Made by a program: the position numbers and the translations under genes | In this document: piece by piece, positions 50,118 through 56,281 of the stretch | Numbering within the stretch: the stretch's first letter is position 1 | Layout of the letters: every line of letters begins with the position of its first letter | The notes under the pieces: generated by a model | What the model was told of the DNA's origin: nothing | Seen by the model: the letters and a program-made list of their open reading frames with translations, nothing else | Database searches by the model: none | DNA from: Spirochaetia bacterium | Lineage (GTDB): Bacteria; Spirochaetota; Spirochaetia; SZUA-6; Bin103 | DNA: 64,000 nucleotides | Reading direction: 5' to 3' | Assembly: GCA_965208575.1 (NCBI GenBank) | Contig: CBDBOV010000005.1 | Location: forward strand, 736,001-800,000

Positions 50118-50924
50118 TCACGCCTGCCAGGCGTCGACCTGCGCCGCGATGATTCGGTGCGCGTCGTCGAGCACGGCCGCCATCGCCTGCCGGTCGGTCG
50201 CCGGCGCATAGATCGCCAGCACCTTGATCCGGTAGTGGACGCCCGCCAGGTTGCCGAACGCACCGAGCCGGGCAATCGCGGTGCCGCCGTCGAGTGCTAC
50301 CGCCACGATCGGCAGGCCGGTCTGCTCGGCAAGCACGCGGGTGCCGGCACGGTAGAAGCGCGCCACCTTGCCGTCCCGGGAACGCGTGCCTTCCGGGAAC
50401 ACGGCAAGGCTGCAGGGCGGATAGGGCGAGCCGGGATCGGCGTGCCGGTCGAGCTGCGCCAGCCGCACCAGCGCGCGGCGGGTGGGGCGAAACGGGCCGT
50501 GGCGGTCGATCGCCGCGTGCTCGCCGTAGCGCAGGCACCGGGACAGCGTCGGGATACCGCGAAACAGCGAGCGCTTGGCGATGAACTTGGGTGGGTGGCG
50601 CGGAAACGCCGCCACCAGCATCGGGATGTCGGCCAGGCTCTGGTGGTTGCTGAGCATGATGAAGCGCCGCGGCAACGCGCCGGCGCCGTCGGTGTCCGCC
50701 GTGTAGCGCAACCCGCAGAAGCGATGCACGGTCGCGATCATGCGCCGGCCCTGCACGGTCATGAACCGTTCCACCACCTGCCGTCGCCGTGTTCGCCAAC
50801 TCATGGTGACCAGGATGCGCAGCTCGCTGAACAGGAATATCACCAGCAGGTAGGTCAGGGCGGCCGCGACGCCGCCCGGCGCCGCCCGGGCGCGGCGGCG
50901 AGTCAGATGCAGCCGGCGGTACAC
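50118..50924 (-). CDS. 1-acyl-sn-glycerol-3-phosphate acyltransferase (PlsC-like)
   Basis: NHQSLAD (HX4D), KFIAKRSL, FPEGTRS. Confidence 0.9.
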   Translation of the reverse strand: MYRRLHLTRRRARAAPGGVAAALTYLLVIFLFSELRILVTMSWRTRRRQVVERFMTVQGRRMIATVHRFCGLRYTADTDGAGALPRRFIMLSNHQSLADIPMLVAAFPRHPPKFIAKRSLFRGIPTLSRCLRYGEHAAIDRHGPFRPTRRALVRLAQLDRHADPGSPYPPCSLAVFPEGTRSRDGKVARFYRAGTRVLAEQTGLPIVAVALDGGTAIARLGAFGNLAGVHYRIKVLAIYAPATDRQAMAAVLDDAHRIIAAQVDAWQA

Positions 50925-50926
50925 GG

Positions 50927-51760
50927 TCAGGTCACGCGGCCGGCATGCGCCGCCGCTCCGGCGCCCCGTGCGCGGCGGAACAGGTCCGGCATGTCGGCGG
51001 CGGCGACCACCCGCACCCGTTCGGCGCGCAGGCGATCGTGATCGGCGAACCACTCGGGCAGAACGTAGCCCCAGTCGGCGAGGCAGGTGGCGATGCGCCG
51101 GTCCGCGTTGCCGAGCAGGTGGTCGAGCTGGTCTTCCACGAACAGGGCGTGCGCCCCGGGTGTGCGGTCCAGGTGTTCGCCGATCATGTCCAGCTTGCGC
51201 GTGTCGGCGCCGTCCGGGTTGCTGGCGGCGTGGAACACGGCACCCGCAGGAATCGGTATGCGGTGGGCGCGCAGGATCTCGCATACCAGCGACGCCGCCT
51301 TGGTGGACAGGACGCGGACGTTGGTCAGGTCGCCGGCGGCCAGCAGCCGGCGCATGTGCGGGTACAGGCGGTTGAGCGCCAGCCAGTGCGGCTTGTCGCG
51401 TGCCAGGAAGGCGCCTCGGGTGCGCGCCATGGCGAGCTTGTACCGTCCGATGCACCGGCTGCCGAGCGTGTCCCGGTAGGCGTCGAACGCCGCCTGGGTG
51501 GCCGGCCCGCGGAAGCCCGCCTCGGCCTGCTCGCGCGCCAGGATCTGCTGAATCACCACGTAGTCCTCACCGGAGCGGATCAGCGGCCGCATCTGCCGGA
51601 ACCGGCGCCGTGCGTGCAGGCTGATGTGCGCTCCCCCGGCGGCGCCGCCGCCAAGCTGCCGCCAAGTCAGCCAACTGCTGACGAAGCACTCCCGCTCCGA
51701 GTCGCACACGACGCCGTCGAAGTCGAGATAGAGCAGCAGCGGGCGGTCGGCGCGCGTCAC
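50927..51760 (-). CDS. HAD-superfamily hydrolase
   Basis: LDFDGVVCDS..EC, LSTK, LFVED, LADWGY. Confidence 0.85.
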   Translation of the reverse strand: MTRADRPLLLYLDFDGVVCDSERECFVSSWLTWRQLGGGAAGGAHISLHARRRFRQMRPLIRSGEDYVVIQQILAREQAEAGFRGPATQAAFDAYRDTLGSRCIGRYKLAMARTRGAFLARDKPHWLALNRLYPHMRRLLAAGDLTNVRVLSTKAASLVCEILRAHRIPIPAGAVFHAASNPDGADTRKLDMIGEHLDRTPGAHALFVEDQLDHLLGNADRRIATCLADWGYVLPEWFADHDRLRAERVRVVAAADMPDLFRRARGAGAAAHAGRVT

Positions 51761-51768
51761 CCGTGCCG

Positions 51769-53966: not shown

Positions 53967-54004
53967 GTCTGGTTCTCAACACCTCTCACACGCTCGCACA
54001 CATC

Positions 54005-54823
54005 TTACACGTTGTGGATCAGGTAGCCGCCGTCGATCGGGATGGTGACGCCGGTGATGAACCCGGCCGCCTGGTCGCTGGCCAGGAACAGGGCGGCGCC
54101 GGACATCTCGCCGGCGTCGGCGAAGCGACCGAACGGGGTGTGGTCGATGATCTGGCGGCCGCGCTCGGTGAGCGTGCCGGTGGCATCGTCTTCGATCAGC
54201 AGCCGGCGGTTCTGATGGGCGACGATGAACCCCGGCGCGATCGCGTTCACGCGGATGCCGTGCGGCGCATACTCCTTGGCGCAGGCCATGGTCAGGTTGA
54301 TTACTCCGGCCTTGGCGGCGTTGTACGCCCACACGCCCGACAGCGGCACGTAGGAGGCCATCGAAGCGACGTTGATGATGCAGCCGCGGCTGCCGCGGGC
54401 GATCCAGAACGCGGTGGTGCGCTTGGTGGGCACCACCAGCCCGGCAACGAGGTTGAGGCTCAGCACCTCCTCGAACAGGGCGACGTCGATGTCGTTGAAG
54501 GCGCCCTTGCCGCGGTTGCCGCCAACCCCGTTGAGCAGCACGGTGGGGGCGCCGAGCGCCGCCTCGGTGGCTTCGAGGGCGGCATCCACCGCCGCCTCGT
54601 CGCCGGCGTCCGCCACGATGCCGCACAGGCGCTCGCGCACGCCGGCATCGCCGCCGAGCTGCTCGACGGCGGCATCCACCGTCTGCTGCCGGCGGCTCCA
54701 GATCGCCACCCGCGCGCCGGCGTTCAGAAACGCGTCGGCGAGGGCCAGCGCGATCGTGCCGCCGCCGCCCGCGAGCGCCACCACCTGGTCGTGAAGACCG
54801 AATGTCCGATCCAGATAACTCAC
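54005..54823 (-). CDS. SDR oxidoreductase, UxuB/D-mannonate oxidoreductase-like
   Basis: AGGGGTI, NGVGGN, YNAAK, RVNAIAPGF...QNRRLL...LTERGRQIIDHTPFGRF, IDGG. Confidence 0.88.
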   Translation of the reverse strand: MSYLDRTFGLHDQVVALAGGGGTIALALADAFLNAGARVAIWSRRQQTVDAAVEQLGGDAGVRERLCGIVADAGDEAAVDAALEATEAALGAPTVLLNGVGGNRGKGAFNDIDVALFEEVLSLNLVAGLVVPTKRTTAFWIARGSRGCIINVASMASYVPLSGVWAYNAAKAGVINLTMACAKEYAPHGIRVNAIAPGFIVAHQNRRLLIEDDATGTLTERGRQIIDHTPFGRFADAGEMSGAALFLASDQAAGFITGVTIPIDGGYLIHNV

Positions 54824-54835
54824 GCTCGTGCTCCT

Positions 54836-56281
54836 TCAACCGATGCGGCGCGCGGGCGGGCTCGACCCGGCCAGCCACTCGGTATGGTACACGCCGCCGC
54901 GGTCGACGCGCCGGTAGGTGTGGGCGCCGAAGTAGTCGCGCTGCGCCTGCAGCATGTTGGCCGACAGCGTGGCCGACCGGTAGCTGTCGTAGTAGCTGAG
55001 CGCGGAGGAGAACGCCGGCACCGGAATGCCGATGGTGGCCGCGGTGGCCACCACTTGCCGCCACTGGTCCTGCCCGCGGTGCACGATGTCGGTGAAGTAG
55101 GGGTCGAGCAGCAGGTTGGCGAGCGCCGGGTCGCGCTCGTAGGCGTCCTTGATCTTGCTCAGGAACTTGGCGCGAATGATGCAGCCGCCGCGCCAGATCA
55201 TGGCGATGGCGCCGAAGTCCAGGTCCCAGCCGTGCTCCGCCGCGGCCGCCCGCATCAGCCCGAATCCCTGCGCGTAGGAACAGATCTTGGACGCGTACAG
55301 CGCCTTGCGCAGCGCCTCCAGGAATCGTGCCCGGTCCCCGGAGAACGTGCTCTCCGGGCCGCTCAGTCGTTCGGCGGCCGCGACCCGTTCCGGCTTCAGC
55401 GCGGACACGCAGCGGGCGAACACCGCCTCCGCTATGGTGGGCGCCGGCACGCCGAGGTTCAGCGCCGACTCGCTGGTCCACTTGCCGGTACCCTTCTGAC
55501 CGGCCTGGTCCAGGATCACCTCGACCAGCGGGGCGCCGGTTTCCGGGTCGCTCTTGGCGAGAATGTCGGTGGTAATCTCGATCAGGTAGGAGTCGAGCTC
55601 GCCGCGGTTCCACGCCGCGAAGGTGTCGTGCATCTCGGCGTGGCTCATGCCGAGCGCCAGCTTCATGAACGAGTACGCCTCGGCGATCAACTGCATGTCG
55701 CCGTACTCGATGCCGTTGTGCACCATCTTGACGTAGTGGCCGGCGCCGTCGGCGCCGATGAAGGTGCAGCACGGGTCGCCGTCCACCTTGGCGGCAATGG
55801 CGGTCAGGACCGGCTCGACCTCCCGGTAGGCGCCGCGGTCGCCGCCCGGCATGATGCTCGGCCCGAGCAGGGCGCCTTCCTCGCCGCCCGACACGCCGGT
55901 GCCGATGTAACGCAGCTTCGCCGCGCCGGCCTCCTGCGCGCGCCGCACGGTGTCGACGAAGTAGGAATTGCCGCCGTCGATCACGATGTCGCCCGGATCC
56001 AGGTGGGGGCGCAGGTCGGCGATGACGCGGTCCACCGCCGCGCCGGCCTGCACCATCAGCAGCACCTTGCGCGGCCGGGACAGGGAGGCGGCGAACTCCG
56101 CGAGCGACGCCGCCGGCAGCAGCCGCTTGCCGCCGGCGCGCTGCACGAACTGGTGCAGGGTGCTCTGGGTACGATTGTAGACCGCCACGGTGTAGCCGCA
56201 GCTTTCGATGTTGAGGGCCAGGTTCTGGCCCATGACGGCCATGCCGACCACGCCGATGTCAGCGTGCGATTGAGTGCTCAT
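54836..56281 (-). CDS. gndA: NADP-dependent 6-phosphogluconate dehydrogenase, decarboxylating
   Basis: [55 protein letters not shown]. Confidence 0.98.

Follow-up and report, generated by a model that had tools for sequence, protein, structure and literature searches.

What would a LarA-family protein do beside a 6-phosphogluconate dehydrogenase? The question is raised by six consecutive minus-strand genes at 50118-56281 of the window, the 64,000-nucleotide stretch of a Spirochaetia bacterium genome analysed here (assembly GCA_965208575.1, contig CBDBOV010000005.1, positions 736,001 to 800,000 of the forward strand). In coding order they are gnd, a short-chain dehydrogenase/reductase (SDR) gene, HAD1 of the haloacid dehalogenase (HAD) superfamily, the LarA homolog (LarAH), HAD2 of the same superfamily and an acyltransferase gene. 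An initial annotation, made from the letters and their translations, read all six as one candidate new pathway from a keto-uronate through mannonate, gluconate and 6-phosphogluconate to the pentose phosphate pathway.

Our answer is that gnd, SDR, HAD1 and LarAH probably make up a form of the GntE branch, a published route of hexuronate catabolism, to which a separate HAD2/acyltransferase part is joined. The analysis shows the gene structure, the families, the conservation of residues and of context and the cofactor genes; the substrates, the direction of flux, the co-transcription and the role of HAD1 are what we infer.

A LarA homolog with GntE-type residues and neighbours

LarAH carries the Lar_N domain (PF09861, 66.5 bits against a gathering score of 23.3). 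The motifs by which it was first recognised, D55-x-x-R58, G87-T-H89, H174...G178-F-S-G-G-x-K184 and H200, are indeed present, and they are invariant in the 13 aligned subfamily members and in the 116 LarAHs of related loci. Equally invariant in both sets are R58, K184, H200, D55, H89, H174 and K297, the equivalents of the residues that bind the nickel-pincer nucleotide (NPN) or act in catalysis. In LarA itself, NPN binding is assigned to R75, K184 and H200, and catalysis to D72, H108, H174 and K298 (accessible text of PMC7583248).

The nearest solved structure is 4NAR, matched over the full length (profile E 2e-77; single sequence E 4.6e-52), and the lactate racemase apoprotein 2YJG comes second (profile E 4e-12). 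The NPN-binding and catalytic residues of LarAH align with R41, K164, H180 and H154 of 4NAR. This structure is Thermotoga maritima GntE2, also called LarAH20, a D-gluconate 2-epimerase with a Km of 17 mM for D-mannonate and a kcat of 197 per s, as given in the available part of PMC7583248.

The GntE enzymes usually have E, V, A and H at the positions of LarA1 F175, F176, W358 and T359, according to the accessible text of Urdiain-Arraiza 2024 (PMC11770544). The window LarAH has E175, I176, A357 and H358 there. Among the 116 relatives, E175, A357 and H358 are kept in all, while 109 have V and 7 have I at position 176. A357-H358 were equated with LarA1 358-359 through alignment to 4NAR A351-H352 and near-identical numbering rather than through a direct LarA1 alignment.

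The best NCBIfam model for LarAH is NF052594, 'nickel-dependent putative hexonate epimerase' (group 18), at 164 bits against a cutoff of 500. From its sequence, LarAH is a candidate GntE-type aldonate 2-epimerase that would lie within the GntE branch and outside this curated family. The source annotations label such proteins 'lactate racemase' or 'DUF2088'.

The gene neighbourhood gives independent support. When each GTDB species was scanned through a single genome, at least 571 relatives were returned, of which the best 80 loci (L017-L096) were analysed; they come from at least five phyla, including Spirochaetota, Desulfobacterota, Planctomycetota, Verrucomicrobiota and Armatimonadota. All open reading frames (ORFs) within 6 kb were clustered without preconceptions, the cluster representatives were scanned and the same-strand neighbours were counted.

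An SDR gene lies immediately upstream of LarAH in 39 of the 80 loci. The other neighbours are gnd in 25, UxaC in 24, UxaE in 15, a GntK-type gluconokinase in 11, FGGY and PfkB kinases in seven each, TRAP DctM and DctP in nine and six, HAD1 in six, and HAD2 and the acyltransferase in five each. At least one sugar-acid gene occurs in 54 loci, and three spirochaete loci share the order gnd-SDR-HAD1-LarAH-UxaE-UxaC.

This is the neighbour set expected for a flow from glucuronate or galacturonate through fructuronate, mannonate, gluconate and 6-phosphogluconate to ribulose-5-phosphate, which is thereby well supported. In the loci where LarAH adjoins a GntK-type kinase, a genuine one by its score (180 bits against 114), this neighbour argues for free gluconate as the LarAH product. 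The core of SDR, LarAH and gnd is kept across phyla, which removes the earlier worry that the gene set is not a conserved cluster, and the outline of the annotated pathway finds support in these partners. The suggestion of an aldonate epimerase also stands, as a GntE-type candidate, by the residue signature, the 4NAR match and this association.

A different substrate is rather improbable. LarAH might act on another hexonate, a uronate or an aldarate, such as a mannonate isomer or glucarate/mannarate, with mannonate and gluconate as a side activity. In the accessible text of PMC7583248, Desguin et al. doubt the assignment of LarAH19/GntE1, with its Km of 120 mM and its setting among uronic-acid genes, and for group 18 they name no more than 'a hexonate'. 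It is the group 18 model that scores best for the window LarAH, far below its cutoff, and the position of GntE2 N348 is an invariant Gly in the subfamily alignment, preceded by R or W. Against such a substrate stand the four-residue GntE signature and the conserved partners, which by our grouping make mannonate (UxaC, UxaE and the mannonate-oxidoreductase-type SDR) and consume 6-phosphogluconate (GntK and gnd).

Genes that would supply two other steps of the GntE branch lie beside LarAH. Gnd passes NF006765 (734 bits against 413) and TIGR00873 (722 against 427) and has both of its domains, PF03446 and PF00393. For the SDR, the D-mannonate oxidoreductase model NF006132 is the top scorer among 212 SDR models, the PDB matches of the window protein are generic SDRs, and the SDR of the clusters with HAD1 passes NF006132 (374 bits for the L117 representative).

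The cofactor genes are found outside the window. larE, larB and larC each exceed the curated cutoff and lie next to one another at C5:833230-835542, on the same contig and about 33-35 kb past the window end, so the concern that the genome might lack NPN biosynthesis no longer holds. The genome has four Lar_N genes in total, and two of them score as much closer to canonical LarA (C6:1443878-1444486, 223 bits; C4:824844-825425, 175 bits).

In the proposed route, UxaC, encoded elsewhere in the genome, would convert glucuronate to fructuronate, and the UxaD-like SDR would convert fructuronate to D-mannonate. LarAH, loaded with NPN made by LarB, LarC and LarE, would then invert C2 to give D-gluconate by proton-coupled hydride transfer via H89 and H174. 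Gluconate would be phosphorylated, a step for which no kinase was identified in the genome, and Gnd would turn 6-phosphogluconate into ribulose-5-phosphate.

This pathway is already published and is not new, contrary to the initial annotation. Rodionova 2012 is credited with proposing the GntE conversion of mannonate to gluconate as an entry to the pentose phosphate/phosphoketolase pathway, in citing passages of PMC7583248 and PMC6978723. In T. maritima the genes form the UxaR-regulated, pectin-induced operon aldH-pelB-gnd-uxaRED-gntEK (Rodionov 2013, available text of PMC3750489). According to the accessible accounts, the GntE activity was shown for LarAH19 and LarAH20 in 2020 (PMC7583248) and for LarAH15 in 2024.

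The same genome keeps the classical genes. On another contig, an Eda-type KHG/KDPG aldolase gene (269 bits against a cutoff of 275) comes directly after uxaC in the same orientation (G000:C6:1019247-1021361). Two UxuA-like genes and a KdgK-like PfkB kinase are also present, a UxaE-like gene (38% identity) lies on a third contig, and no Edd over cutoff was found in the genome. Thus the GntE branch would operate alongside the classical UxuA/KdgK/Eda route instead of substituting for it, contrary to the annotated bypass of UxuA and 2-keto-3-deoxygluconate. A Cof-type HAD-IIB sugar-phosphatase-like gene stands divergently upstream of uxaC (L185:9441-10454).

The missing kinase and the order of phosphorylation

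Several findings weigh against the GntE reading. The window SDR scores below the NF006132 cutoff (220 bits against 281), all 13 LarAH members tested fall far below the cutoff of NF052594, the only related curated model (best E 8.9e-56), and the identity between LarAH and GntE2, judged by eye, is no more than about one third. Among the 80 LarAH loci, 26 have no sugar-acid neighbour. A gnd gene dedicated to the pathway was rejected: a single tblastn match makes it the sole gnd of the genome and zwf is present (600 bits), so the window gnd also does housekeeping in the oxidative pentose phosphate pathway. T. maritima itself is reported, in the accessible text of PMC3750489, not to grow on gluconate, glucuronate or galacturonate alone. 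The role in proofreading that we favour for HAD1 below would be an analogy only, its fold matches being generic.

The kinase belongs to the same side of the balance. A gluconate kinase was correctly described as absent from the window, and a gluconokinase was not found in the whole genome either. SKI-type GntK over cutoff is absent from this genome by a genome model scan, and from all 22 LarAH-bearing Spirochaetota genomes (21 of 300 sampled and the present one). The best FGGY gluconokinase score in the genome is 179 against a cutoff of 649. An FGGY kinase adjoining LarAH in the spirochaete locus L038 has orthologs of at least 47% identity in 11 of the 22 genomes, LarAH-adjacent in five; in the present genome only a paralog-level match to it was found (E 2e-41). 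A search with the relatives' phosphofructokinase (PFK)-like query, a gene that accompanies HAD1 elsewhere, found no homolog in this genome.

These gaps bear on an alternative in which phosphorylation comes first, which we consider unlikely; the initial annotation rightly raised a phosphorylated aldonate as a possible LarAH substrate. Some kinase would make 6-phosphomannonate, or a phospho-fructuronate that the SDR then reduces, and LarAH would be a 6-phosphomannonate/6-phosphogluconate 2-epimerase of the Lactobacillus suebicus type. Both the mannonate kinase and the 6-phosphomannonate 2-epimerase activities exist in nature (PMC6978723), and mannonate kinase and 6-phosphomannonate are scarcely mentioned in the literature searched. 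Besides the lack of a gluconokinase here, the clusters with HAD1 carry GntK or FGGY in none of 80 loci and a PFK-family gene in 26, and fructose-6-phosphate, the normal PFK substrate, resembles fructuronate by our own comparison. A phosphatase gene in the cluster, moreover, implies a relevant phospho-intermediate besides 6-phosphogluconate.

The LarAH tree speaks against this order. Among its 116 sequences, 42 and 24 were assigned by cluster type and 50 were unlabelled; the kinase-type and HAD1-type LarAHs interleave, the latter standing at four or more positions in the tree. The two classes are told apart by none of the alignment columns, no Arg or Lys is specific to one of them, and at the columns ranked highest as 'discriminating' the window LarAH carries the residue of the kinase type. 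A functional split by cluster type was rejected, the lowest column overlap of 0.23 being driven by one clade of 25 tips.

Because the LarAHs interleave on the tree and no column separates them, the enzyme is probably isofunctional in both cluster types, as far as the sequences tell. Therefore the clusters that bear GntK (11 of the 80 loci, beside orthologous LarAHs) argue for free gluconate as the product. In the available texts, PMC6978723 cites a report that mannonate is not a substrate of E. coli GntK, and the three GntE-branch enzymes tested act on unphosphorylated mannonate (PMC7583248 for two of them). Epimerisation before phosphorylation thus remains the reading that we prefer.

HAD1, a conserved accessory of the module

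HAD1 is a conserved accessory of the gnd/SDR/LarAH module. It passes Pfam HAD_2 (32.5 bits against 23.8), and its motifs D21-x-D23, S174/T176, K205 and G226-D-x-x-x-D231 are invariant in 14 of 14 sequences, with a mean column identity of 75% across phyla. The AlphaFold2 model has a pLDDT of 90, and HAD folds are its best matches. No NCBIfam family and, by sequence profile, no PDB entry matched. The family is large: every one of the 8000 candidates scored passes E 0.001, so that it has at least 8000 members, and hundreds of them share about 60% identity across phyla, with generic source names only.

A more specific name for HAD1 was sought and rejected. The Foldseek matches (best E ~3e-5, TM 0.35-0.51, 9-18% identity) are generic and include phosphonatase, phosphoglycolate phosphatases, beta-phosphoglucomutase, dehalogenases and designed proteins, and the Atlas gave generic HAD clusters only. 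In the literature searched, no paper on HAD1 was found, nor one that joins any three of glucuronate isomerase, lactate racemase, 6-phosphogluconate dehydrogenase and haloacid dehalogenase.

A metagenome scan seeded with HAD1 gave at least 572 relatives, of which the best 80 are the loci L105-L184. By clustering, LarAH is a neighbour in 41 of these, gnd and the SDR in 40 each, a PFK-family gene in 26 and UxaE in 19, and GntK or an FGGY kinase in none of the 80. Where both flanks reach 3 kb or more, which holds for 29 loci, tblastn found gnd in 23 and LarAH in 17. The order of SDR, HAD1, LarAH, gnd and the PFK-like gene is shuffled between loci, and the set is kept.

The PFK-family gene (for example L107:13244-14545, L126:11472-12845 and L157:4681-5973) passes PRK14072, a model of a pyrophosphate (PPi)-phosphofructokinase subfamily (359 bits against 273). 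In the LarAH-seeded set it occurs in four of the 80 loci (L021, L025, L028 and L087), all among the six with HAD1; the hand-calculated hypergeometric P of this overlap is ~1e-5, and three of the four loci are related spirochaetes. The window lineage, which includes L017 and L105, lacks the PFK-like, UxaE and UxaC neighbours and has HAD2 and the acyltransferase instead. It has lost these neighbours or never had them.

We regard it as very improbable that HAD1 supplies the phosphorylation, alone or with the PFK-like protein, as a phosphotransferase that passes a phosphoryl group to the aldonate from PPi or a similar donor. HAD1 does sit at the place of T. maritima gntK in a genome where no gluconokinase was found, it never meets GntK or FGGY in the 80 LarAH-seeded or the 80 HAD1-seeded loci, and the PFK-like gene of the LarAH-seeded set comes only with HAD1 (four of four). 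Its motif set, however, is that of an ordinary hydrolase, and 13 of the 25 LarAH loci with gnd have neither HAD1 nor GntK/FGGY. The exclusivity in the LarAH set is not significant by itself, only 1.4 overlaps being expected (estimated P ~0.2), and three HAD1 loci (L155, L158 and L168, the first two looking like duplicates) carry a PfkB kinase.

HAD1 as a strict replacement of the kinase was rejected on these last two counts and on a third: in 20 of the 22 Spirochaetota genomes with LarAH, both HAD1 and a GntK over cutoff are absent, so other kinases must serve there. The mutual exclusivity of HAD1 and the kinases is suggestive and short of proof.

A bolder proposal, and an improbable one, makes HAD1 the core of an undescribed route from hexuronate to 6-phosphogluconate that dispenses with a conventional sugar-acid kinase, together with the PPi-PFK-like protein in the relatives. 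The PFK-like enzyme would phosphorylate fructuronate, the carboxylate analogue of fructose-6-phosphate, at C1. The SDR would reduce the phospho-fructuronate to 6-phosphomannonate, LarAH would epimerise this to 6-phosphogluconate, and HAD1 would be a phosphotransferase or an editing enzyme. No phosphorylation of fructuronate by a PPi-phosphofructokinase appeared in the titles and abstracts of the literature searched.

For the role of HAD1 in the GntE branch, our preferred guess, a tentative one made by analogy, is a proofreading phosphatase tied to Gnd. It might remove a phospho-sugar-acid that blocks Gnd or accumulates as a dead end, for example 4-phosphoerythronate or 6-phosphomannonate. The accessible texts of PMC6449344 and PMC12445079 describe that 4-phosphoerythronate inhibits 6-phosphogluconate dehydrogenase and is removed by Pho13/PGP and by Bacillus subtilis CpgA, and that a cpgA mutant is intoxicated by carbon sources feeding the pentose phosphate pathway.

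Three further genes were seen around LarAH or HAD1. A D-isomer 2-hydroxyacid dehydrogenase gene is found in six of the 80 LarAH-seeded and, by tblastn, in four of the 80 HAD1-seeded loci (for example L087:6676-7902, L118:12743-13732 and L048:10830-11858); its best models are PGDH and glyoxylate reductase, and PdxB (4-phosphoerythronate dehydrogenase) is among the weaker matches. Directly downstream of LarAH, six of the 80 loci, of the Planctomycetota type and showing no sugar-acid genes, have an IMPase-family gene, of which L072:9229-10023 is just over the cutoff for the histidinol-phosphatase HisN (279 bits against 275). In a spirochaete relative, an adenylate-kinase-family gene (L019:5124-5789; PF00406, 142 bits) lies directly upstream of gnd-SDR-LarAH-HAD2 and is probably the housekeeping adk.

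Operon structure and comparison with known systems

Mapping of the start codons confirms the six minus-strand genes exactly as first annotated, with intergenic gaps of 12, 38, 2, 8 and 2 nt (Table 1). The window DNA has a G+C content of ~70%, for which reason many overlapping ORFs are spurious and the six genes were chosen by homology. Two ORF clusters, 'c12' and 'c28', were dropped as shadow frames inside gnd, and the ORF clusters that overlie LarAH, SDR, gnd and HAD1 on the other strand were likewise taken for shadows.

Table 1. Genes of the cluster and a promoter-like match, in window coordinates
Feature	Position	Strand	Description	Basis
gnd	54836-56281	minus	481 aa, NADP-dependent decarboxylating 6-phosphogluconate dehydrogenase	NF006765 and TIGR00873
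SDR	54005-54823	minus	272 aa, UxaD/UxuB(SDR)-like candidate fructuronate reductase (D-mannonate oxidoreductase)	Best model NF006132, below cutoff
HAD1	53067-53966	minus	299 aa, uncharacterised C1-capped HAD phosphatase-like protein	Pfam HAD_2
LarAH	51769-53064	minus	431 aa, candidate NPN-dependent GntE-type aldonate 2-epimerase (D-mannonate <-> D-gluconate)	Lar_N
HAD2	50927-51760	minus	277 aa, divergent HAD-superfamily protein, lineage-restricted	Core motifs
Acyltransferase	50118-50924	minus	268 aa, PlsC/LPLAT family	PF01553
Sigma-70-like promoter match upstream of gnd	56510-56538	minus	9/12 hexamer matches	Consensus match only

The six genes, with their tight spacing as one hint, are probably one transcription unit of two functional parts. 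A consensus scan of 49800-56700 gave just two promoter-like matches, both in the intergenic region 56282-56527, and no internal promoter-like site between the six genes. In one metatranscriptome run, the gnd/SDR junction (54678-54949) and the SDR/HAD1 junction (53926-54173) are each bridged by single RNA contigs from a relative of about 92% likeness. These contigs are a weak hint of co-transcription, short of showing one transcript.

The cluster is bordered by a convergent plus-strand gene that ends at 50111 and a divergent one that starts at 56528. The former is a 394-aa ORF (48927-50111), whose C-terminal part resembles M23-family peptidases, as judged from the translation alone. The latter is an 851-aa ORF (56528-59083) with glycine/aspartate-rich nonapeptide-like repeats of the GGxGxD type, and by the same kind of reading looks like an RTX/calcium-binding repeat protein. 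Public runs labelled 'sponge metagenome', from five studies, hold 0.20-0.35 of the sampled words from 50118-56281, which is a habitat lead only.

The last two genes form the second part. HAD2 has no Pfam or NCBIfam match at E <= 0.01. Its core motifs D13-x-D15, S152-T153, K189 and D210 are invariant in 12 of 12 aligned homologs, its Atlas features match HAD clusters at 0.97, and its 61 homologs in all lie near this lineage, the distant ones carrying PF00702 or a HAD label. By these sequence features HAD2 is assigned to the HAD superfamily and to no finer level. The acyltransferase matches PF01553 (60 bits against 23) and stays below the cutoff of TIGR00530, the 1-acylglycerol-3-phosphate acyltransferase model (57 against 103); its translation shows the motifs NHQSLAD, which we take to be the HX4D motif of acyltransferases, and FPEGTR.

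The loci with HAD2 or the acyltransferase after LarAH are all spirochaete. In L026 and L029 both accompany LarAH without SDR or gnd, and a GT2 glycosyltransferase gene is also a neighbour. The two genes are probably a separate lineage-restricted module of lipid or envelope metabolism sharing the operon. The annotation of six genes as one pathway is therefore not upheld, since this pair joins LarAH only in close spirochaete relatives and, in L026 and L029, does so without the sugar-acid genes.

As a consequence of the GntE reading, the LarA homolog, and with it at least 571 relatives in GTDB species genomes, could be read as GntE-type sugar-acid epimerases. A nickel-dependent step would become part of the way in which Spirochaetota, Desulfobacterota, Planctomycetota, Verrucomicrobiota and Armatimonadota use uronates, and through the route the pentose phosphate pathway would receive sugar acids from polymers of plants and algae. 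The cluster would be a variant of the published route that has no recognisable kinase and that carries the highly conserved, phosphatase-like HAD1 where other bacteria have a sugar-acid kinase. The substrate of HAD1 would reveal either a new bacterial proofreading enzyme that protects Gnd or the way in which the aldonate gets phosphorylated. The L. suebicus route likewise lacks assigned genes for the phosphorylation, and there is interest in that route for redox-neutral pectin conversion. The bolder phospho-route with HAD1 at its core, if true, would add a phospho-substrate to the nickel-pincer cofactor chemistry.

Among the known systems, the Ashwell pathway (UxaC-UxuB-UxuA-KdgK-Eda) has UxaC and the step from fructuronate to mannonate in common with the proposed route. 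It differs in that mannonate is dehydrated, not epimerised, and the window genome appears to hold this route too.

The Gnd-protecting phosphatases, yeast Pho13 and mammalian PGP of the HAD family and B. subtilis CpgA, resemble the role guessed for HAD1, in that a phosphatase is functionally tied to Gnd and, in the accessible accounts, needed when carbon enters via the pentose phosphate pathway. On the HAD1 side, the likeness lies in gnd being the tightest link in the well-flanked loci and in the PdxB-like dehydrogenase near some HAD1 loci. Unlike this functional likeness, no sequence or close fold relation to HAD1 was found by Foldseek or PDB profile. Pho13/PGP presumably also belongs to another HAD cap class than HAD1.

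The curated LarAH group 18 (NF052594) is the best model for the window LarAH and for all 13 aligned relatives, but its cutoff leaves the window protein outside. The loop E-V/S and alpha11 W features are common to groups 18-20, and group 18 itself was never assayed, according to the available text of PMC7583248.

The L. suebicus hybrid isomerase/phosphoketolase route uses a kinase for mannonate together with a 6-phosphomannonate 2-epimerase, whose genes were unassigned when it was published (Valk 2020, PMC6978723); that paper makes no mention of lactate racemase or nickel. As in the window, mannonate derived from hexuronate would become 6-phosphogluconate and be decarboxylated by Gnd, and a redox-neutral logic is possible if the window SDR uses NADPH. 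In contrast, phosphorylation precedes epimerisation there, in the reverse of the GntE order.

The T. maritima operon has gnd, the SDR UxaD and a LarA-family 2-epimerase together in the same relative order as the window, and the same flow from fructuronate to ribulose-5-phosphate is proposed for it. The window operon differs in lacking gntK, uxaE and a regulator, in having HAD1 between the SDR and the epimerase, and in the appended HAD2 and acyltransferase, and its genome has uxaC and the UxaE-like gene on other contigs. The two epimerases, T. maritima GntE2 and the window LarAH, share the same NPN-binding, catalytic and specificity residues.

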